NCBI GenBank assembly: GCA_049964835.1
Contig: JBMFWW010000004.1
Coordinates: forward strand, 1 to 44,445
Length of the DNA stretch: 44,445 nt
Direction: 5' to 3'
Origin: Candidatus Micrarchaeia archaeon
GTDB lineage: Archaea > Micrarchaeota > Micrarchaeia > Micrarchaeales > CABMGC01
Part shown: positions 13,649 to 41,454 of the stretch, piece after piece
Layout: each line of letters begins with the position of its first letter
Position numbering within the stretch: the first letter of the stretch is position 1
Position numbers and translations under genes: made by a program
Notes under the pieces: generated by a model
Told to the model about the DNA's origin: nothing
Seen by the model: only the letters and a program-made list of their open reading frames with translations
Database searches by the model: none

Positions 13649-14815
13649 ATGCTTATAGGATTAGTTGGTGCACCTAATAAGGGCAAGAGTACATTATTTT
13701 CAGCATTGACTACAATAGAGGTCGGAATAGCTGATTATCCATTTACTACAATAAAGCCAAATCTAGGAACGACATATTTTACAAAAGAGTGTCCAGATAA
13801 AGCATTAGGATTAAAATGCATGCCTAGGAATTCTTTATGCGTCAATAATATTAGAAGAATACCAATCTCAATAACTGATATCGCAGGATTAGTCCCTGGA
13901 GCTAGCCTTGGAAAAGGTATGGGCAACCAATTTCTGAGCAATATAGTTGGAGCGGACGCATTAATATTAGTTGTTGATTTAACTGGCGAGACTGATTCTA
14001 GTGGCAATAAGACACAATTTTATGATCCATATTTAGACATAAAAATGATAAGAGAAGAGCTTAAATTTTGGTTAAGTGAGATAATTAAAAAACACATGGG
14101 AACATTATCAAAAAGCAAAGACGGTATAACTTCTATTAAAACCTTATTATCCTCTTTTAAAGCAACTAGCAATCAAGTAAAAGAAGCAGCAGAACTTTCA
14201 AATTTATCACTTTCATTCATATCCTGGGATGATAAAAACATAGAGCTATTTTCAGAAAAGTTTCTTTCATTAAATAAACCAATGGTCATAGCCGCTAATA
14301 AATTAGACCTTTCAAGTGGCAAAGTACTTACCGAATTAATCGAAAAGGTACCTGATTTAAAGGTAATTGGTTGCTCAGCAGCAATAGAACTTGCACTGAG
14401 AAAAGCAGAAAAATCAGGAGTAATAGAGTATGACATCAATAAATCCTCATTTAATATAAAAAGTGCAGAACCCGAGCAAAAGAGAGCATTGGATTTTATA
14501 TCAGAATACCTTAGTAAGCACAATGGTACGGGTGTTCAAGAGTTAATAAATTATGTAACTACAAAACTACTAAAGCAAATTGTTGCATATCCAGTTGAAA
14601 ATGATACTAAATATACAGATCATTTTGGAAATGTACTGCCAGATGCAATTTTAATGACGCAAGGCAGTACTGCATTAGATCTAGCTTCAAAAATACATAC
14701 TGATCTTGCTGAAAAAATGATTTATGCTATCGACGCAAGGAAAAAAAGTAGAATTTCAAAAGAATATTTATTAAAAGATAACGATATAATAAAAATAGTT
14801 AGCGCAGCAAAATAA
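13649..14815 (+). CDS. ychF: Obg-family YchF/Ygr210-like GTPase with TGS domain
   Basis: GAPNKGKST, YPFTT, DIAGLVPGA..GKGMGNQFL, NKLD, IHTDL. Confidence 0.9.
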   Translation: MLIGLVGAPNKGKSTLFSALTTIEVGIADYPFTTIKPNLGTTYFTKECPDKALGLKCMPRNSLCVNNIRRIPISITDIAGLVPGASLGKGMGNQFLSNIVGADALILVVDLTGETDSSGNKTQFYDPYLDIKMIREELKFWLSEIIKKHMGTLSKSKDGITSIKTLLSSFKATSNQVKEAAELSNLSLSFISWDDKNIELFSEKFLSLNKPMVIAANKLDLSSGKVLTELIEKVPDLKVIGCSAAIELALRKAEKSGVIEYDINKSSFNIKSAEPEQKRALDFISEYLSKHNGTGVQELINYVTTKLLKQIVAYPVENDTKYTDHFGNVLPDAILMTQGSTALDLASKIHTDLAEKMIYAIDARKKSRISKEYLLKDNDIIKIVSAAK

Positions 14816-20530: not shown

Positions 20531-21304
20531 ATGCCAAGAAAACTTAGTAAAAGAAAACAGCCAGATAGAGATATCCACCTTATACATGAAGTTCAGAAAA
20601 TAGAGAACGGCGTCTTTGATAAAAAAACATTAATGATTCTTGCAAAATTTTTTAATCATAAGATAGTTTCAGAACTCATGTTTGTGATTTCTACCGGAAA
20701 AGAAGCAAACGCATACCTGGCAAAATCAGGAGACTCTATTCAGGATGAATTTGTAGTTTTAAAGATATTTCGAGTTCAGAACTCTAACTTTCAAAATCGC
20801 ATAAAATACATGCAAGGTGATCCAAGATTTGGTACATTGAATAAGAAAATGCAATCTATAGTAACTTTATGGTGTAAAAAAGAGTTCGGAAATCTAAAAA
20901 TTGCTTATGAATTGGGAGTTGCAGTTCCAAGACCAATAAAAGCAATAGATAATGTATTGGCAATGGAGTTTATCTACACATCAAATGGATCTCCAGCACC
21001 AATGCTAAAAGATATAACTCTTAATAATCCTACTAAAGTCTTAGATGAAATTATTAAAAATATAGGATTATTATATAAGGGGAAAATGGTTCATTCAGAT
21101 TTAAGCGAGTATAATATACTTATAAAAAATGTTGATGAAGAAGAAAAGGCAGTTTTTATAGATATGGGGCAAGCCATAGTATATGGCCATCCTAAATTTG
21201 AAGAGTACTTAAAACGAGATGTATCTGTAATCTTGGCACATTTTTCAAAAAAATACAAAATAGATAATAGTTTAGATCAAGTATTAGAAAAGATAAAACT
21301 CTAA
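20531..21304 (+). CDS. rio1: RIO1 serine kinase
   Basis: ISTGKEANAY, GDPRF, W..KEF.NL, HSDLSEYNIL, IDMGQA. Confidence 0.95.
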   Translation: MPRKLSKRKQPDRDIHLIHEVQKIENGVFDKKTLMILAKFFNHKIVSELMFVISTGKEANAYLAKSGDSIQDEFVVLKIFRVQNSNFQNRIKYMQGDPRFGTLNKKMQSIVTLWCKKEFGNLKIAYELGVAVPRPIKAIDNVLAMEFIYTSNGSPAPMLKDITLNNPTKVLDEIIKNIGLLYKGKMVHSDLSEYNILIKNVDEEEKAVFIDMGQAIVYGHPKFEEYLKRDVSVILAHFSKKYKIDNSLDQVLEKIKL

Positions 21305-30287: not shown

Positions 30288-30911
30288 TTGGCGACTGGAA
30301 TGGATAGGATTATTGAGGAGTGTTTTAATTTATCAAGTGACCAGAAAGAAGGATGTCTTTTTGTAGTCGAAACTGAAAATATAAAAACAAAATATTACAA
30401 AGATTACAATACTGACATTTATAAAAAAAACGGCAAAAAATTATCCGTTTTGAATAAAAAAGATAAGACAACAATAAAATTGCTTGCAGGTCTTGATGGA
30501 GCAATGATCATAAATAAAAAAGGTGAGTTAGTACATTATGGTGCAACATTAATTAATTCCGATAAGTTTGTTGGACATGGTAAAAGACACGCGTTTGCAT
30601 TAGGCACCAGTAAAAAGATAAATGGTGTCGTATCTATTTTGGCTAGTGAAGAGGACAAACACATACGCGCGTTCAAAAACGGTGCGTGTATCTTTGATAT
30701 CGACTCAAATAGCAAATTAACAAGCTCAAAGAAACAGATTATAGCTGATGTCTTAGCTACTCCGTTGTCAAAAACATTGATTGCTTCTGGAATAGCTACA
30801 TCGGTATTAACACTAAATCCATTGCCTGCAATAATTACAATAAGTGGGAGTTATGTTATAGTTTCAGAGGGCTTTGACAGAATTAAAAAAATATTTAATA
30901 AAAAAAGCTAA
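30288..30911 (+). CDS. Diadenylate cyclase (DisA_N/DAC domain) with hydrophobic C-terminal tail
   Basis: EGCLFVV, LAGLDGAMII, GHGKRHAFA, ASEED match DAC motifs DGA / GxRH / SEE. Confidence 0.82.
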   Translation: MATGMDRIIEECFNLSSDQKEGCLFVVETENIKTKYYKDYNTDIYKKNGKKLSVLNKKDKTTIKLLAGLDGAMIINKKGELVHYGATLINSDKFVGHGKRHAFALGTSKKINGVVSILASEEDKHIRAFKNGACIFDIDSNSKLTSSKKQIIADVLATPLSKTLIASGIATSVLTLNPLPAIITISGSYVIVSEGFDRIKKIFNKKS

Positions 30912-32094: not shown

Positions 32095-32413
32095 ATGCTA
32101 GCAAGTAATATTGCAGGATTAAAACCAACCGATATCAAAAAAGTTGGAACTAAAACAGAAGAGAGATATAGAGTTGCTTATGAAGTTGATGGTATATCTG
32201 TCAAATCTTTTTTTAGTAGTATGAAGATAGTAGTATGAAGATTTATGTTTAGAAAATAACTCAAATATTTTTTACAAGAATCATATCATAACAATTAGAA
32301 ATAGGCTTCTTCGACTTAGAAGACTTTCCAGAAGAAAACTTTCAAGAGAAGAAGTTGAAAATTTTCTAGTTTTACAAGAAATTGCAAAGATTAGTACAAT
32401 AAAAGTCAAATGA
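32095..32413 (+). pseudogene. Disrupted hypothetical ORF broken at a 14-bp tandem duplication
   Basis: GTGGGG RBS then MLASNIAGLKPT...; TAGTAGTATGAAGA x2 at 32214-32241; a different frame continues YEDLCLENN...IKVK*. Confidence 0.45.
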
Positions 32414-32457
32414 AAAGAAATATTAATCTGAAGTATTTAATATATTTTTGTGATAAC

Positions 32458-33222
32458 ATGACCCAAATCACTCCCCCAAAAAGTGTTAGAGCTACAGAAC
32501 AAGAAAAAACTGAACAAACGACAGTCAAACAGGATATAATTGGATTAGCTAATGTATTAAGACGTACTCCTTTATCTTTAAAGGATGTTTTAGAGTTGAA
32601 AAATGCAGATAAATTTTACTTTGAAGCGTTAAGGATAAAAGATGAGAGAACTGATAATATAGATTTATCAGATATTTTAATGCCTTACTCTGTAGTAAAA
32701 GATTCTAAATTTACAAAATTATCCGCAAACAAAACATCATTTATGCAGAGTGTTTTTAATCATTTAGAAATAGAATGTTTAGAAGCTGAGAAATCAAATT
32801 TTGGAGGCGCATCTATATCAAGAGTAAAGATACGTTCTGGATTTATAGACGAATCAAATTTTTCCGGATCTAAAATTATAAGATCTACATTCAATAAATC
32901 TTATGAACTGTTATCCGCCAAGAAAACAGATTTCACCGATGCAAAGATCTTTGAGTCTAATATCAGAGCAGTTGACTTATCAGAATCTAAAATAAAAAAT
33001 GCAATGATTAGAGATTCGGATATGGAAGGCTCAATATTTAGAGGTGCTGATTTAACAGATACGTTATTTGAAAATGTTAATTTTTGCAGATGCGATTTTT
33101 CAGGAGCAGATATAACTGGGACTAAATTTATAAATGTAAAATTTGACGGAGCCATATTGAAGGATATGATTGTTATTATCGGTGGCAAAAAATTAGTCTG
33201 TAATGGACAAGAATTTATCTAA
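32458..33222 (+). CDS. Pentapeptide repeat protein
   Basis: SNFGG ASISR, TDFTD AKIFE, VDLSE, SIFRG ADLTD TLFEN VNFCR CDFSG ADITG periodicity; GTGAT RBS before ATG 32458. Confidence 0.88.
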   Translation: MTQITPPKSVRATEQEKTEQTTVKQDIIGLANVLRRTPLSLKDVLELKNADKFYFEALRIKDERTDNIDLSDILMPYSVVKDSKFTKLSANKTSFMQSVFNHLEIECLEAEKSNFGGASISRVKIRSGFIDESNFSGSKIIRSTFNKSYELLSAKKTDFTDAKIFESNIRAVDLSESKIKNAMIRDSDMEGSIFRGADLTDTLFENVNFCRCDFSGADITGTKFINVKFDGAILKDMIVIIGGKKLVCNGQEFI

Positions 33223-33330: not shown

Positions 33331-33633
33331 ATGACAGACATTAATAATGACCTTAGACTTGTTATAGACACAGGTAAGTATACAATAGGCAATAGAGAGG
33401 TTATCAGATCAATATCAGACTCAAAAGCAAAGGTAATAGTTCTAGCTTCAAAAGGGAAAAAGGAAATTGCAGAGGATATACTACATCTTTGCAGTGTTGC
33501 AAAACTGCGTGTTATAAAATTTAGCGGCAATTCACTTGAACTTGGAACATTATGTGGAAAGCCATACTCAGTAACTGTTTTAGCTGTGTTAGAGCCAGGA
33601 AACTCTAACATTTTAAATGAAGAATATGAATAG
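33331..33633 (+). CDS. rpl30e: 50S ribosomal protein L30e
   Basis: DTGK..IG, GNSLELGTLCGKPY.V, PGNSNIL. Confidence 0.96.
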   Translation: MTDINNDLRLVIDTGKYTIGNREVIRSISDSKAKVIVLASKGKKEIAEDILHLCSVAKLRVIKFSGNSLELGTLCGKPYSVTVLAVLEPGNSNILNEEYE

Positions 33634-33642
33634 GTGTTATGT

Positions 33643-34071
33643 TTGCCAAATGGAGAGTTCGCTGCAAAGGAAGTTATAAGAAAAAGAAAGAAGCAAAGGC
33701 TTCTCAATAAATGGTGGAAGAGAAAGTACTTTAAATTAAAGCAAAAGTATGATCCTGTAGGTACAGTACCTATGGCAAAGGCATTAGTACTTAAAAAGTT
33801 TGTACTACAGCAGAAGCAACCTCACAGCGGTTTGATAAAATGCGTAAGAGTACAGCTTATTAAAAATGGAAAAATTGTTGGAGCGTATGTTCCATTTGAT
33901 GGTTCAATAAATATGATAGAAGAGCACGACGAGGTAACAATACAAGGAATGGGAGGCTCACAAAGAGGTCAAATGGGAAGTATTCCTGGCTTAAAGTACA
34001 GAGTAATAGCAGTAAACGGTGCAGATATATTCCAAGTAGTAAAGGGTAAGAAGGAAAAACCTAAGAGGTAA
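33643..34071 (+). CDS. rps12: 30S ribosomal protein S12 (uS12), divergent
   Basis: PNGEFAA, KQPHSG..KCVRVQLIKNGK, IEEHDEV, IPGLKYRV..VNG, GKKEKP; probable TTG start after AGGTG. Confidence 0.96.
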   Translation: MPNGEFAAKEVIRKRKKQRLLNKWWKRKYFKLKQKYDPVGTVPMAKALVLKKFVLQQKQPHSGLIKCVRVQLIKNGKIVGAYVPFDGSINMIEEHDEVTIQGMGGSQRGQMGSIPGLKYRVIAVNGADIFQVVKGKKEKPKR

Positions 34072-34076
34072 ATTTT

Positions 34077-34853
34077 ATGGCAGATTCAATTGATACTAAA
34101 AAAGGCATTCAGAATGAAGACATTAAATCTGGTGAAGCATCAGTATCTGAAGCTTTAGATTCAACACAGCAAGTAGAAAGATCACAAAAAAGACAAAGAA
34201 AAACCGCAATACCTAAAGAGTCAATGCCAGACAACACCTTTCTAAAAAGTAAGGTTAAGTTATTCGGCAAGTATGATATATCCAATATAGAAATAACAGA
34301 CGAAAGTGTTAAAGGATATGTTCGTTTTAACGGTCAAGTATATCCAAATATTTTTGGAAGAAGAAAAAACAATGCTTATTACAACTCTCATCTAGATATA
34401 GTTGAAAGATTAGTAAATAAGATGATGAGAGGAGGAACGGGAAAGAAGGTTGGAGGAAAGGTAATCAGAACTGAAGGAAGACTCCAAGGGAAAAAGATAA
34501 AGGTAATGCATGTAGTAGAGGATGCTTTTGATACTATAAACAAGAAAACAGGCAAAAATCCTGTACAGGTTTTCATAAATGCACTACAGAACGCAGCACC
34601 TATCGAAGATACTACAAGAGTAAGATATGGTGGTATTTCATATAATGTTGCGGTAGGAATCAGCTCAAATAGAAGAGTTGATGTTGCACTCAAAAATATT
34701 GCGTTAGCAGCTTTGATAAATGCTTTTAATAAAAGAAAGAAGCTTTCAGATGCATTAGCAGATGAGTTAGTATTAGCTGCGGATAAAGCACCAGAAAGCT
34801 ATGCTATAAAGAAGAGATTAGAAGGAGAAAGAATAGCAAAGCGTGCTAGATAA
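34077..34853 (+). CDS. rps7: 30S ribosomal protein S7 with N-terminal extension
   Basis: KLFGKYD, IVERLVNK, NPVQV...NAAP.ED.TR..YGG, SYAIKKR.E.ERIA. Confidence 0.96.
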   Translation: MADSIDTKKGIQNEDIKSGEASVSEALDSTQQVERSQKRQRKTAIPKESMPDNTFLKSKVKLFGKYDISNIEITDESVKGYVRFNGQVYPNIFGRRKNNAYYNSHLDIVERLVNKMMRGGTGKKVGGKVIRTEGRLQGKKIKVMHVVEDAFDTINKKTGKNPVQVFINALQNAAPIEDTTRVRYGGISYNVAVGISSNRRVDVALKNIALAALINAFNKRKKLSDALADELVLAADKAPESYAIKKRLEGERIAKRAR

Positions 34854-34877
34854 TTATAATTTTTAAATGTGTTAGTT

Positions 34878-37070
34878 ATGGTAAGAAAGGAGTTTGTAGC
34901 TGAAGAAGTTGCTAAGCTTATGCATGATATAGATAGAGTTAGAAACGTAGCAATAATAGCTCACGTGCACCACGGAAAGACTACTCTCACAGATTCATTA
35001 TTAGCAAGAGCCGGAATAATATCTAAGAATGTAGCCGGAGACGCATTATACACAAACTATGAAGCTATAGAAAAGGACAGGAAGATGACAATAAAATCGG
35101 CAGATATATCTTTATCATTTAACTATAAAGGTCAAGATTATATAATAAATTTAATAGATACGCCAGGCCACGTAGACTTCGGAGGTCATGTAACAAGATC
35201 AATGAGAGCGGTTGACGGAGTTGTACTTGTTGTAGATCCGGTAGAAGGAATAATGCCTCAAACCGAAACTGTTTTGAGACAAGCACTACAAGAAAGAGCA
35301 AAACCAGTTCTTTTCGTAAATAAAACTGACAGATTATTAAATGAATTAAGACTTACACAGGAGCAAACCTTTGAAAGATTGCTTAAATTGATCGGTGAAG
35401 TAAATACTCTAATTAAAAGATTTGCTCCAGAGGGATATGGAGATAAATGGCAGGTTAGCGTTGAGAATGGAAGTGTATGTTTTGGATCTGCTTATAAGAA
35501 ATGGGCCATCTCAGTAAGAATGATGGAAAAGTACAAAGTTAACTTTAAAGATATATTCAAATTAACACAAGAACAAAATGAAACAAAACTTCAAGAAGTT
35601 GCTCCTATAGATGAAGCAACACTTTCTATGATGATTGAACATTTGCCTAATCCACGGGAGGCACAGCCATACAGAATCCAAAAGTTATGGCATGGAGATT
35701 TAGAGAGTGAAAACGGAAAGGCAATGATGACAGTAGATCCTAAAGCTAAAGTTAACATAGTCATATTTGGGGTTACCAATGACCAACATAGCGGTGAAGT
35801 TGCAATAGGAAGGGTATTTTCAGGAACTGTAAGAAAAGGCACAATGTTGTATACAACAGGAATGCCAGATCCTCAAAAAGTTCAACAAGTAGGAATTTAT
35901 ATGGGTCCTGAAAGAGTAACTATCGAGCAGATATCTGCTGGAAATATAGCAGCATTAGTAGGACTTAAAAACATATCAATAGGAGACACTGCAAGTGAGG
36001 ATAATATAGAACCGTTTGAACAAATTAAGCACTATTCACAACCAGTAGTTACTAAAGCAATAGAAGCAAAAGATACAAGAGATCTAATGAAGTTAATAGA
36101 GGCATTAAGACAGTTGTCAAAAGAGGATCAAACAATAAATGTAGAGCTTAATCAAGAAACAGGGGAGCACTTAGTAAGCGGAATGGGAGAGCTGCATTTA
36201 GAAATTATAGAAACAAAGATAAGAGATGATTATAAAGTTGCAATAACTACATCTGAACCTATTGTAGTTTATAGAGAAACAATAGAAGGCGAAGCAAAGG
36301 ATGTAGAAGGTAAAACACCTAACAGACATACAAGGTTCTATATAGATGTAAAACCTCTAGAACCAGGAGTATTAGATTTAATCGAAACAGGAGTACTTAA
36401 AAACGGAAAGCCAAAGGGTAAGCAGTACTGGGATGATCTCATAAAGGCAGGAATGGAAAGAGACGAAGCGAGAGGAGTGGTAGATATTTCAAATGGAAAT
36501 GTTCTTATAGATGCAACTCACGGTGTTCAGTATCTTGATGAGGTAATGGAACTCTTGATTGAAGGATTTGAAGATGCAATGCATGACGGTCCACTCGCAA
36601 GAGAAAAGTGTTCAGGTGTAAAAATATTAATAAAGGATGCAACAATACACGAAGACCCTGTTCACAGAGGTCCTGCACAAATAATACCGGCAATAAGAAG
36701 ACCGATATATGCAGGTATGCTTATGTCAGGAGTATCACTTTTAGAGCCAAAGCAAAAGTTCACAATAAATATTCCACAAGAGTATCTTTCAGATATAATA
36801 ACGTTTGTACAAGGTAAAAGAGGTCAGATAGTGGATATACAACAAGAAGGAGAGCAAGCAACCGTAATATCAAAGATGCCTGTTGCAGAGGTAATAAAAG
36901 GATTTTCAAATGAGATAAGAGGTCTTACAGCAGGAAAGGCCATATGGTATCCGGAATATGCGGGTTATGAAAAGTTGCCAAAGGATCTTCAGGATAAGGT
37001 AGTTAGAGAAATAAGAAAGAGAAAGGGACAAACTCCTGAGCCACCTACGCCACAGCAGTTTATGGATTAA
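34878..37070 (+). CDS. fusA: Elongation factor 2 (aEF-2)
   Basis: DTPGHVDF, NKTD, GMGELHLE, HEDPVHRGPAQI diphthamide loop; atypical G1 AHVHHGKTT and switch I RKMTI. Confidence 0.97.
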   Translation: MVRKEFVAEEVAKLMHDIDRVRNVAIIAHVHHGKTTLTDSLLARAGIISKNVAGDALYTNYEAIEKDRKMTIKSADISLSFNYKGQDYIINLIDTPGHVDFGGHVTRSMRAVDGVVLVVDPVEGIMPQTETVLRQALQERAKPVLFVNKTDRLLNELRLTQEQTFERLLKLIGEVNTLIKRFAPEGYGDKWQVSVENGSVCFGSAYKKWAISVRMMEKYKVNFKDIFKLTQEQNETKLQEVAPIDEATLSMMIEHLPNPREAQPYRIQKLWHGDLESENGKAMMTVDPKAKVNIVIFGVTNDQHSGEVAIGRVFSGTVRKGTMLYTTGMPDPQKVQQVGIYMGPERVTIEQISAGNIAALVGLKNISIGDTASEDNIEPFEQIKHYSQPVVTKAIEAKDTRDLMKLIEALRQLSKEDQTINVELNQETGEHLVSGMGELHLEIIETKIRDDYKVAITTSEPIVVYRETIEGEAKDVEGKTPNRHTRFYIDVKPLEPGVLDLIETGVLKNGKPKGKQYWDDLIKAGMERDEARGVVDISNGNVLIDATHGVQYLDEVMELLIEGFEDAMHDGPLAREKCSGVKILIKDATIHEDPVHRGPAQIIPAIRRPIYAGMLMSGVSLLEPKQKFTINIPQEYLSDIITFVQGKRGQIVDIQQEGEQATVISKMPVAEVIKGFSNEIRGLTAGKAIWYPEYAGYEKLPKDLQDKVVREIRKRKGQTPEPPTPQQFMD

Positions 37071-37108: not shown

Positions 37109-37582
37109 ATGAAAACAACAAAATCTTATGTAACCTTTGAAGTAACAAAGGAAGTTTCAGATAAAGCGCTTGAAGCAGTAAGGCTTGCAAAGCAGAACGG
37201 CACCGTTAGAAAGGGCGTCAATGAAGTAACAAAGAGTATAGAGCGCGGTTTGTCTACATTAGTCATACTTGCTGAGGATATTGAACCTGAAGAGGTAGTA
37301 ATGCATATACCTACGCTATGTAATCAAAAAAAGATAGCATATGTTTATGTTCCTACCAAATTAGAATTAGGAAAAGCTGTAGGAATGAATGTTCCGTGCT
37401 CATCCGTTGCAATAGAAAAGCCAGGAGATGCGCAATCAGCAGTAAATGAAGTTGTATCTAAAACTACTGGAAAAGCTGCATCTTCAAATCCTGAAGAAAA
37501 ATCAAAGGATGAAAAAGCAAAAGAAGAGAAGCCAAAGAAGGAAAAAGAGAAAAAAGAAGCTAAGAAGGAAGAGTCTGAGTGA
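37109..37582 (+). CDS. rpl7ae: Ribosomal/sRNP protein L7Ae with K/E-rich tail
   Basis: RKGVNEVTKSIERG, AEDIEPEEVVMHIP, ELGKAVG. Confidence 0.96.
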   Translation: MKTTKSYVTFEVTKEVSDKALEAVRLAKQNGTVRKGVNEVTKSIERGLSTLVILAEDIEPEEVVMHIPTLCNQKKIAYVYVPTKLELGKAVGMNVPCSSVAIEKPGDAQSAVNEVVSKTTGKAASSNPEEKSKDEKAKEEKPKKEKEKKEAKKEESE

Positions 37583-37587
37583 TTATA

Positions 37588-37893
37588 ATGCCTGAAGAAA
37601 AAGCCGAACAAAAATCAAAAATTGAAAAAAAGGACAAAGCAGTCCAAACTCAAACTGAGATTAAAGAGGTTTCAAACGAAACAATTTTTGATGGATATCT
37701 AGCAGAGGTAGTTGATGTTGTAAAGGGTAGAACTGGCATATACGGAGAGATAAAGCAAGCTATGTGCAAGATAATGGAAGGCAAAGATAAGGGCAGAGTA
37801 ATAAGAAGAAACTTCGCAGGTAAGATACAGAAAGGAGATATAATAAGACTTCCTGACACAAGCAGAGAGGATAAAAGAATAATAGCAAGGTAA
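37588..37893 (+). CDS. rps28e: 30S ribosomal protein S28e with N-terminal extension
   Basis: AEVVDV..GRTGIYGE..Q..CKI.EG.DKGRVIRRN..G....GDI. Confidence 0.93.
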   Translation: MPEEKAEQKSKIEKKDKAVQTQTEIKEVSNETIFDGYLAEVVDVVKGRTGIYGEIKQAMCKIMEGKDKGRVIRRNFAGKIQKGDIIRLPDTSREDKRIIAR

Positions 37894-40899: not shown

Positions 40900-41454
40900 A
40901 TGCAAAAAAGGTTCAATCTCCTTAGAACTGCCGGTTACATTGAGTTAAGATATAAAGAACTTAAAAGAACATTGAGAGATATCGAAGAAAACTGCATTGT
41001 AAAAATACACAAAAAGGACTTTTTCTTTAAAAAAGAGGATGGATTTACACTTAATGATTCAGAACAAATCCACTTTCAATATAAATGGCTTGAAAAAGTT
41101 AATGAAGCACTAGAAGAGATCACTCCAAAACCGATAGCTTTTTTGAAGATAGGGAGAGATTATGGCTATTTAATGGATATTGTTAATGGAGAAACATTAG
41201 AACAAAAACTCAAAAATCCGGAATCAAAAGAAAAAATTAAAAGAGAGTTTAATTTTGATTTGCTTTATGACTCGATTAAAGAATTACATAGAAGAGAACT
41301 GCCACATGGCGATTTGGACCCTTCCAATATAATGATTTCACACAATAATAGATTTGTCCTCATAGATCCGTTTAAACACCCATCTCTATCAGATGGTATA
41401 CACGATGACCTTTCTAATTTGAAGAGAGTTCGTGAATTTGTATTTAATGCTTAA
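40900..41454 (+). CDS. Small protein-kinase-like fold protein
   Basis: VKIH, TPKPI, LMDIVNG, LH...HGDLDPSNIM, LIDP. Confidence 0.75.
   Translation: MQKRFNLLRTAGYIELRYKELKRTLRDIEENCIVKIHKKDFFFKKEDGFTLNDSEQIHFQYKWLEKVNEALEEITPKPIAFLKIGRDYGYLMDIVNGETLEQKLKNPESKEKIKREFNFDLLYDSIKELHRRELPHGDLDPSNIMISHNNRFVLIDPFKHPSLSDGIHDDLSNLKRVREFVFNA

Follow-up and report, generated by a model that had tools for sequence, protein, structure and literature searches.

Histidine in place of the P-loop aspartate of archaeal elongation factor 2: a coupled and recurrent remodelling of the GTPase centre in Micrarchaeota and Thermoplasmata

The P-loop of elongation factor 2 (EF-2) carries an aspartate that the field treats as invariant, and the archaeal protein considered here has a histidine in its place. 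It is encoded in a window of 44,445 nucleotides (the whole stretch of DNA that was analysed, positions 1 to 44,445 of the forward strand of contig JBMFWW010000004.1, assembly GCA_049964835.1, from a Candidatus Micrarchaeia archaeon) and, as read from its sequence, it is an ordinary EF-2 in all respects save a GTPase centre remodelled at that residue. What emerges from the comparison of archaeal EF-2 sequences is a coupled, conserved and repeatedly evolved replacement of three residues predicted to face the phosphates or the metal, in a factor that is otherwise intact. A first-pass annotation, made from the DNA alone, had noticed two of the three changes and proposed that the residues of a monovalent-cation site had been lost, the amine of a new lysine acting as a built-in finger. 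This proposal is partly supported: the coupled remodelling of the cation site stands, while a lysine finger is not the common element.

Residues are numbered here from the methionine at ATG 34878. The EF-2 open reading frame extends further upstream (34869-37070, forward strand, 733 codons, open from GTG 34869) and, because homologues have 730 residues and the N-terminus MVRKE, this ATG is likely to be the true start; numbering in the open reading frame is higher by 3. The elements on which the argument rests are the following:

34878..37070, forward strand: EF-2 gene (aEF-2), 730 aa from ATG 34878
34959..34985, forward strand: G1 / P-loop AHVHHGKTT, from the translation
34968..34970, forward strand: His31 (His34 of the open reading frame), CAC, replacing the P-loop Asp of translational GTPases; equivalent to EF-Tu Asp21 and MnEF-2 Asp31
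35049..35057, forward strand: upstream segment of switch I, Tyr58-Thr59-Asn60; canonical relatives have Val/Phe-Leu-Asp
35055..35057, forward strand: Asn60, AAC, replacing Asp60, 11 residues before the Mg-binding Thr
35076..35093, forward strand: switch I DRKMTI with Arg68, Lys69, Met70 and Thr71; canonical R68-G69-I70-T71 in MnEF-2 (PMC8244253)
35082..35084, forward strand: Lys69, AAG, replacing Gly in switch I
35088..35090, forward strand: Thr71 of switch I, Mg ligand

The readings of G1 and of switch I in the first-pass annotation were exact in every coordinate. The third coupled change, from Asp60 to Asn, had been missed, and Met70 replaces the canonical Ile70.

The roles of the canonical residues are taken from published work on related factors. 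In the EF-2 of Methanoperedens (MnEF-2), where the P-loop reads A28-H-I-D-H-G-K-T and switch I R68-G-I-T-I, the carboxylate of Asp31, the backbone carbonyl of Gly69 and oxygens of the alpha and gamma phosphates are predicted to make up a 'nascent' monovalent-cation site, which superposes on the Na+/K+ site of eIF5B (PMC8244253). The equivalence of His31 with MnEF-2 Asp31 and EF-Tu Asp21 comes from the same source and from PMC5084732. A survey of translational GTPases (trGTPases) also describes monovalent-cation binding via the P-loop Asp and the switch I Gly, with Ala and Asn instead in eIF2 gamma (PMC4342817); the model of Kuhle and Ficner on which these accounts draw is used here at second hand, from PMC8244253, PMC4342817 and PMC5084732. 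The role of Asp60 is borrowed from EF-Tu, in which Asp51 and Thr62 are separated by the same 11 residues and both contact the phosphates of GMPPNP and Mg2+ (PMC4329189), the MnEF-2 paper being silent on Asp60. Neither of the two residues that mark the cation site, the P-loop Asp and the switch I Gly two positions before the Mg-binding Thr, is present in the protein of the window, which has His and Lys instead. To this extent the claim that the cation-site residues were lost is borne out; as the Gly ligand is a backbone carbonyl (PMC8244253), however, a change of side chain alone does not delete it, the carbonyl of Lys69 may persist, and loss of that ligand is not implied by Lys at the Gly position.

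The replacement is a lineage trait. Among the 121 closest proteins (at least 71% identity), 117 combine AHVHHGK with R-[RK]-[MIL]-T-I; in one the His is replaced by Leu, and the remaining three are canonical. Within the order, 58 genomes yielded a translated EF-2 N-terminus, with states at positions 31/60/69 of H/N/R (43 genomes), H/N/K (11), D/D/G (3) and D/D/S (1); His, Arg or Lys, and Asn60 thus occur together in 54 of 58. These two counts rule out a sequencing or assembly error, in agreement with what the first-pass annotation had argued from the pairing of the changes. The His-type clade spans two families, f1 (31 His-type genomes among those translated) and f3 (23 of 23). Canonical D/D/G proteins are found in three f1 genera: L030 (G032), L032 (G016) and L056/L068 (G031). 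The lone f2 genome, G037 (L059/L061), is the D/D/S case: with AHVDHGKTT and QRSMTI it keeps the Asp, with Gly changed to Ser and Ile to Met, and looks like an intermediate state. The RSMTI string of this EF-2 is shared by an aIF2g-like protein of the window's genome (L156).

A census at the DNA level, using a degenerate pattern for AH[VIM]HHGK on 301 genomes sampled from the phylum, gave the same picture. The pattern was found in 125 of them, namely 51 of 53 f1 genomes plus the genome of the window (G000) and 73 of 75 f3 genomes, as against 0 of 172 in the other 28 families; each genome had a single match, and a reversed control pattern had none. In translated genomes the matches coincide with the EF-2 P-loop, the remaining ones being counted from the DNA pattern alone; omission of genomes G050 and G219 lowers the counts by one each and leaves the results unchanged.

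Codon usage at the three positions varies across the 54 His-type loci. His31 is written CAC in 45 and CAT in 9, Asn60 AAC in 43 and AAT in 11, and residue 69 AGG in 19, AGA in 15, CGC in 7, CGT in 1, CGA in 1, AAG in 10 and AAA in 1; this synonymous variation argues that all three residues are under selection. At position 69 a basic residue is present in 54 of 54, Arg in 43 and Lys in 11. Lysine, on which the first-pass annotation had built its mechanism, is therefore the minority state, and the nearest relative of the window's protein, L004 (91-92% identical), has Arg. At least five interchanges between Arg and Lys are needed among 23 rows of the tree described below, and this repeated exchange is more in keeping with selection for a positive charge than with selection for a catalytic group held in one exact place. 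One protein, P0106 (Leu31 with Lys69), might have been held to prove that the histidine is dispensable; it is a singleton, and P0425, 99.9% identical and in the same cluster, has His, so that this candidate is rejected.

To see how far the changes go together in archaeal EF-2 at large, we may consider the best 150 representatives of clusters at 50% identity, in 106 of which both motifs are readable. The states at 31/69 are D/G in 86, D with a residue other than Gly in 14 (Q 3, S 3, A 3, K 2, R 2, C 1), H with a residue other than Gly in 5 (L 2, Q 2, E 1), H/G in 0, and one doubtful N/T. A Fisher test gives p 1.5e-4, a rough value that ignores relatedness. Lys or Arg at 69 is also found with Asp31 retained (P0146, P0169, P0176 and P0239).

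Relatedness is taken into account by a maximum-likelihood (ML) tree of 73 rows, from which the trait columns had been removed (704 columns left). The Micrarchaeota rows with H/[RK]/N form one clade (23 rows, SH-aLRT 91), whose sister is a canonical D/G/D clade (6 rows, 100); the D/S/D sequence falls outside both. The His clade does not have a long stem branch (0.077, compared with 0.10 in its canonical sister). The other His rows each lie next to D/G/D relatives: P0122 [H/L/N], P0127 [H/Q/W], P0130 [H/L/W] and P0155 [H/Q/D]. The minimum number of changes on this tree is 5 for the P-loop Asp, 10 for Gly69 and 4 for Asp60, and His at the P-loop position arose about five times in archaeal EF-2. 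When independent pairs that differ at position 31 are compared, Gly69 differs likewise in 5 of 5 and Asp60 in 4 of 5; together with the absence of His with Gly among the 106 representatives, this upholds the covariation that the first-pass annotation expected. Position 31 differs in only 5 of the 9-10 pairs in which Gly69 does, which suggests that loss of the Gly, usually with Ile70 changed to Met or Leu, came first or was permissive, and that Asp gave way to His later.

Further positions changed in parallel. Residue 58 became Tyr in Micrarchaeota, P0122 and P0127, residue 59 became Thr in Micrarchaeota, P0127 and P0130, and there are convergent changes of residue 38 to Thr and of residue 207 from His to other residues. 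Position 207 is remote in sequence from the phosphates. Of 37 canonical outgroup rows, 23 have His there, and the protein of the window has Lys (35496-35498); the Micrarchaeota His clade uses Lys, Glu, Asp or Arg, and three further His lineages use Glu or Gln, P0122, P0127 and P0130 being non-His.

Within the order, the EF-2 tree puts the canonical f1 genera outside the His clade of f1 and f3. On a reduced set of 33 rows (LG+G4) the His rows again form one clade (support 87), and the AU test does not reject monophyly of f1 (delta lnL 9.2, p-AU 0.376). Since f1 holds both types, f3 is entirely His-type and f1 monophyly is not rejected, two histories have to be kept side by side: the ML tree needs a single origin of His in the order, and a further event, whether reversal, gene replacement or second gain, is possible.

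Many of the archaeal representatives are 900-1230 aa long and match the query in two stretches (P0123, P0124, P0126-P0128, P0130, P0131, P0133 and P0138). A P-loop ending in HGKC followed by a large insert looks in these long proteins like an intein placed directly after the GK of the P-loop, and the insert is present in two of the His-type lineages, P0127 and P0130.

The second group in which the histidine is widespread is that of P0122, annotated as a Thermoplasmata EF-2. Its close relatives number 134, of which 128 have AHIHHGKTT and RLLTI, the other six being fragments or without motif. Proteins of this type are encoded by 80 species-level genomes from soil, peat and acid-sulfate-soil metagenomes, and 78 of the 80 loci read AHIHHGKTT / [YLF]LN / RLLTI / DxPGH, the last two being without readable N-terminus. 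Two Thermoplasmata genomes, each of 2.2 Mb and one in the form of a closed chromosome, encode no EF-2 other than the His-type protein. The DNA pattern, applied to a sample of 151 genomes of the phylum on the Thermoplasmata side, gave 12 matches, 7 coding for AHIHHGK and 5 for AHVHHGK; three of the former were translated (G315, G332 and G337), and two of the three show H/N/C with ARCLTI. His31 is thus accompanied by Leu or Cys at position 69 in 78 of 80 Thermoplasmata loci and in L163/L164. Because Thermoplasmata genomes carry such a protein as their only EF-2, free-living archaea appear to depend for translocation on a His-type centre alone, one in which residue 69 is hydrophobic or small.

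The five AHVHHGK-coding matches on the Thermoplasmata side are rejected as EF-2. They belong to an unrelated conserved open reading frame (L158-L162, in G458, G435, G430, G365 and G355), in which the peptide AHVHHGK, in the context PAHVHHGKGIIHVHTS, mimics the P-loop pattern. Only the 7 AHIHHGK-coding matches therefore count, and counts made from the pattern depend on a check of the translation.

In the genome of the window (806 kb in 46 contigs, 94% complete) there is one EF-2, and no second, canonical copy was found in this 94% complete assembly, in accordance with the first-pass expectation; single-contig relatives (G027, G044 and G051) have one match each. We infer from this sole-copy status that the protein is the organism's single working translocase. 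The change is also specific to EF-2. A search with the PF00009 family returned five trGTPase genes, one of them EF-2, and Asp is kept in EF-1a (GHVDHGKST ... RGITI), in aIF5B (GHVDHGKTS ... GGITQ) and in the aIF2g-like protein (GHVDHGKTT ... RSMTI). An internal control is provided by an Obg-like GTPase of the window (13649..14815, forward strand, with YGR210-like G4 and TGS domains), whose P-loop GAPNKGKST keeps the Asn that acts as cation ligand in K+-dependent GTPases (PMC5084732). A genome-wide abandonment of cation-dependent GTPases is thereby ruled out. So is a compensating change of the sarcin-ricin loop (SRL): its core motif matches exactly inside the large-subunit (LSU) rRNA, and no change was seen there. 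The fifth gene of the trGTPase family, L157 (G000:C5:11932-12282), lies in an open frame of 453 aa whose N-terminal part, including the P-loop, is masked.

How can a centre of this kind be understood? The reading that we prefer, to which we would grant a little less than an even chance, is that the cation has been replaced by side chains of the protein itself, with His31 as the main element; the loss of the cation and the parts played by His31 and by residue 69 are what we infer from the pattern of changes. His31 would take over from Asp31, the acidic P-loop ligand of the cation site beside the GTP phosphates, and the pocket would be filled by protein side chains of which His31 is the constant one. 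Its imidazole, probably protonated beside the triphosphate, would sit at the place of the cation and hydrogen-bond oxygens of the alpha and gamma phosphates. The N-epsilon-H of a histidine lies roughly where a cation bound by an aspartate at the same C-beta would lie, as estimated from standard side-chain lengths. In Micrarchaeota the basic residue 69 would supply a second positive charge, the switch I Gly69 whose carbonyl completes the cation site having become Arg or Lys, with Ile70 changed to Met and Asp60, presumed to face the phosphate and Mg, changed to Asn. DTPGH keeps its catalytic His, and the sarcin-ricin loop would activate the factor as it does canonical ones.

There is precedent for such an exchange in the dynamin superfamily, where the third variable position of the P-loop either holds the catalytic Na+ or K+ or carries a built-in positive side chain: Ser41 of dynamin is a cation ligand, together with two switch I glycines, while at the same position Arg48 of GBP1 is an internal arginine finger, and Arg77 of atlastin is catalytic (PMC5084822; see also PMC6310460). 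Aligned by motif arithmetic, A-H-V-H-H-G-K falls on the G-L-Y-R-T-G-K of GBP1 as described in PMC5084822, a functional analogy and not a sign of family membership. Because His31 shares this P-loop position with the GBP1 finger and the dynamin ligand, it is a better candidate than Lys69. The dynamins differ in being a separate GTPase superfamily, activated by dimerisation, with Arg rather than His as the finger. Comparison with G-alpha proteins bears on switch I instead: there an intrinsic Arg near the Mg-binding Thr, three residues before it, acts in cis on the phosphates, whereas the new basic residue of the His-type EF-2 lies two before the Thr and the residue three before is Arg68, the conserved Arg of trGTPases. 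Generalizing from the dynamin analogy, one might see the His-type EF-2 as a recurrent cation-independent design, in which a P-loop 'histidine finger' replaces the monovalent or divalent cation held by Asp; we regard this wider statement as doubtful. Were the charge to come from a titratable imidazole, translocation could become sensitive to the pH of the cytoplasm instead of K+.

Several considerations weigh against replacement of the cation by His31. The positions assigned to His31 and Lys69 relative to the phosphates are extrapolated from related structures. In EF-Tu importance is attached to the negative charge of the Asp: the D21A variant has a ribosome-stimulated GTPase lower by some three orders of magnitude, and simulations ascribe an effect to the opposite charges of Asp21 and His84, so that a histidine would invert the logic (PMC5084732). 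Moreover, the function that was replaced may not be that of a monovalent cation, and the relevant metal on the ribosome may be Mg2+ at A2662, since K+ gives EF-Tu no stimulation on the ribosome and, when EF-G is bound to the ribosome, its Asp binds a Mg2+ in the neighbourhood of A2662 in the sarcin-ricin loop (PMC5084732). The Gly ligand is a carbonyl and 14 of the 106 representatives pair Asp with a residue other than Gly, so that the site may survive loss of the Gly. Once coupled changes have been made, entrenchment can conserve them without any benefit, and with 5 independent pairs the lowest p that a sign test can reach is 0.0625.

The same observations on the ribosome are the starting point of the strongest competing explanation, according to which docking to the sarcin-ricin loop has been rewired: His31, with Arg or Lys69 in Micrarchaeota, would contact the phosphate of A2662 directly, free of metal. 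It agrees with the suggestion that the Asp may act via this loop (PMC5084732), and every change makes the surface that faces the rRNA more positive. We nevertheless consider it unlikely: the loop is unchanged in sequence, EF-1a and aIF5B, which use the same loop, keep Asp, and the Leu or Cys69 of Thermoplasmata cannot bind a phosphate.

The mechanism of the first-pass annotation makes the amine of Lys69 (the guanidinium of Arg69 in most relatives) a built-in finger in the cation site, His31 merely removing a useless acidic ligand. In its favour is the invariance of a basic residue 69 in the Micrarchaeota His clade, maintained through both Arg codon families and Lys codons. In MnEF-2 residues Arg68, Ile70 and Ile72 face domain III (PMC8244253), from which, by strand alternation, the side chain of residue 69 would face the nucleotide side, like Thr71; and K+ in P-loop NTPases occupies the place of the nitrogen of an Arg or Lys finger (PMC6310460). 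Against it are the frequent swaps of Arg and Lys, the presence of Leu, Cys, Gln or Glu at 69 in other His-type lineages, and the occurrence of Lys or Arg together with Asp31; the only apparent case of a basic residue 69 with neither His nor Asp is the singleton P0106 already set aside. Such a finger is geometrically possible for Micrarchaeota and cannot be a general solution, and as the key to the mechanism it seems improbable.

Of comparable improbability is a tolerated loss, in which the cation or metal site would have gone without substitute, slow growers bearing a slower GTPase while the residues became locked by mutual epistasis. That trGTPases can do without these residues is illustrated by EF-G-2 of Thermus thermophilus, which lacks the Asp, the Gly and the catalytic His and still supports poly-Phe synthesis (PMC8244253), and by eIF2 gamma, which lacks both cation-site residues (PMC4342817); the variation of residue 69 between His lineages points the same way. 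Mere loss accounts poorly, however, for the arrival at His, among the many residues that could have replaced the Asp, in each of the five independent origins, for the extra convergent changes at 58, 59 and 60, and for the strict retention of a basic residue at 69 amid synonymous turnover. The stem branch is not long, and free-living soil Thermoplasmata with genomes of 2.2 Mb rely on the His-type protein as their only EF-2. Finally, it is scarcely credible that the cation site persists, with a neutral His31, the carbonyl of residue 69 and the phosphates still binding Na+ or K+: the carbonyl is available from any residue and Asp with a residue other than Gly is common (14 of 106), but imidazole nitrogen is a poor ligand for K+ or Na+, and the basic side chain at 69 and the loss of Asp60 both disfavour a bound cation. 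A histidine beside the triphosphate is, in addition, expected to be protonated, as the catalytic His next to GTP and the sarcin-ricin loop has a computed pKa above 9 (PMC5084732).

Replacement by side chains, with His31 as its main element, may also be set against what is known of trGTPases that depart from the rule. Canonical archaeal EF-2 (MnEF-2, 6u43/6u45; Pyrococcus aEF-2, 5h7j; 6q2d) shares with the protein of the window its five domains, DTPGH, NKxD, the diphthamide His and the same operon, and differs in having A-H-I-D-H-G-K-T and R-G-I-T-I where His31, Asn60 and Lys69-Met70 are found here. A natural likeness is eIF2 gamma, a trGTPase without both cation-site residues (Ala and Asn) and without monovalent-cation binding (PMC4342817, PMC5084732); it has a protein, instead of the ribosome, as its activator, has other replacements and belongs to another trGTPase family, and the aIF2g-like protein of the window's genome, unlike eIF2 gamma, keeps its Asp. 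The T. thermophilus EF-G-2 (EFGII, PDB 1WDT) has no catalytic His and exists in addition to a canonical EF-G, as a second copy. The His-type EF-2 does not belong with this degenerate paralogue, having an intact DTPGH, a His as the replacement and no other EF-2 beside it.

A search of the accessible literature for the strings AHVHHGK and AHIHHGK returned no earlier report of a His-type P-loop, and no paper was found there that joins Micrarchaeota, elongation factor 2 and GTPase; subscription papers and the supplementary alignment of PMC4342817 lie outside that scope. It is worth emphasizing what is at stake. The P-loop Asp is regarded as a second catalytic residue, described as invariant and as conserved in trGTPases except eIF2 gamma, its position being that of the K+-binding Asn of MnmE and of Gly13 of Ras (PMC5084732). 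Its role is disputed, between a ligand of a monovalent cation, a holder of Mg2+ at the sarcin-ricin loop and an electrostatic partner of the catalytic His. Whole clades, among them one of DPANN symbionts and one of soil Thermoplasmata, appear to run all their protein synthesis with His31, which implies that a ribosomal translocase can do without the Asp. The repeated and independent swap to His amounts to a natural test of cation use by these enzymes, with a minimal set of co-changes now defined (31, 60, 69/70 and often 58/59) and with canonical sister proteins of about 70% identity (L030, L032) available for swap comparison. If the wider reading of a recurrent cation-independent design is correct, the His-type EF-2s would form a natural series of variants, open to reversion, from which the debate on what the Asp and its cation do in ribosome-activated GTP hydrolysis might be decided. 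They also call for caution in annotation and in structure-based inference that take AHxDHGK as universal.

The rest of the protein follows the canonical pattern. All five domains of EF-2 and EF-G are present above cut-off (Pfam GTP_EFTU, EF-G_D2/GTP_EFTU_D2, EFG_III, EFG_IV and EFG_C), and the closest solved structures are archaeal and align over the full length (6q2d_C, E 5e-254; 5h7j_A, E 7e-250), as do the Methanoperedens entries 6u45/6u43, the E values for canonical aEF-2 structures ranging from 5e-254 to 6e-240. The diphthamide-acceptor His is kept in domain IV, the modification itself being a prediction. The motifs that the first-pass annotation had called intact are indeed so in the translation, and the gene order is the normal one:

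35157..35171, forward strand: G3 / switch II DTPGH, catalytic His intact, from the translation
35319..35330, forward strand: G4 NKTD, intact, from the translation
35484..35498, forward strand: G5 GSAY, then Lys207 (mostly His in canonical EF-2, as in AYHNW of 6q2d)
36660..36680, forward strand: diphthamide-site VHRGPAQ, intact, aligning with HRGPAQ of 6q2d and 5h7j
33331-33633, forward strand: L30e/L7Ae-family protein, upstream operon gene
33634-34071, forward strand: S12, upstream operon gene
34077-34853, forward strand: S7, upstream operon gene
37109-37582, forward strand: L7Ae, downstream gene
37579-37893, forward strand: S28e, downstream gene

The operon thus runs L30e, S12, S7, EF-2, L7Ae, S28e and includes the S12-S7-EF-2 arrangement. 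Its S7 frame encodes 258 aa, of which residues 101-258 alone are covered by the Pfam S7 domain, so that the protein either has a long N-terminal extension or starts further downstream. Immediately upstream of the operon lies a gene for a pentapeptide-repeat protein of 270 aa (32410-33222). Elsewhere in the window, a protein of 207 aa (30288-30911) has a DisA-type diadenylate cyclase (DAC) domain (E 3e-11), which suggests c-di-AMP signalling in a very small genome, and two genes encode RIO-type kinases (20531-21304 and 40900-41454), the second being short (184 aa) and matching weakly.

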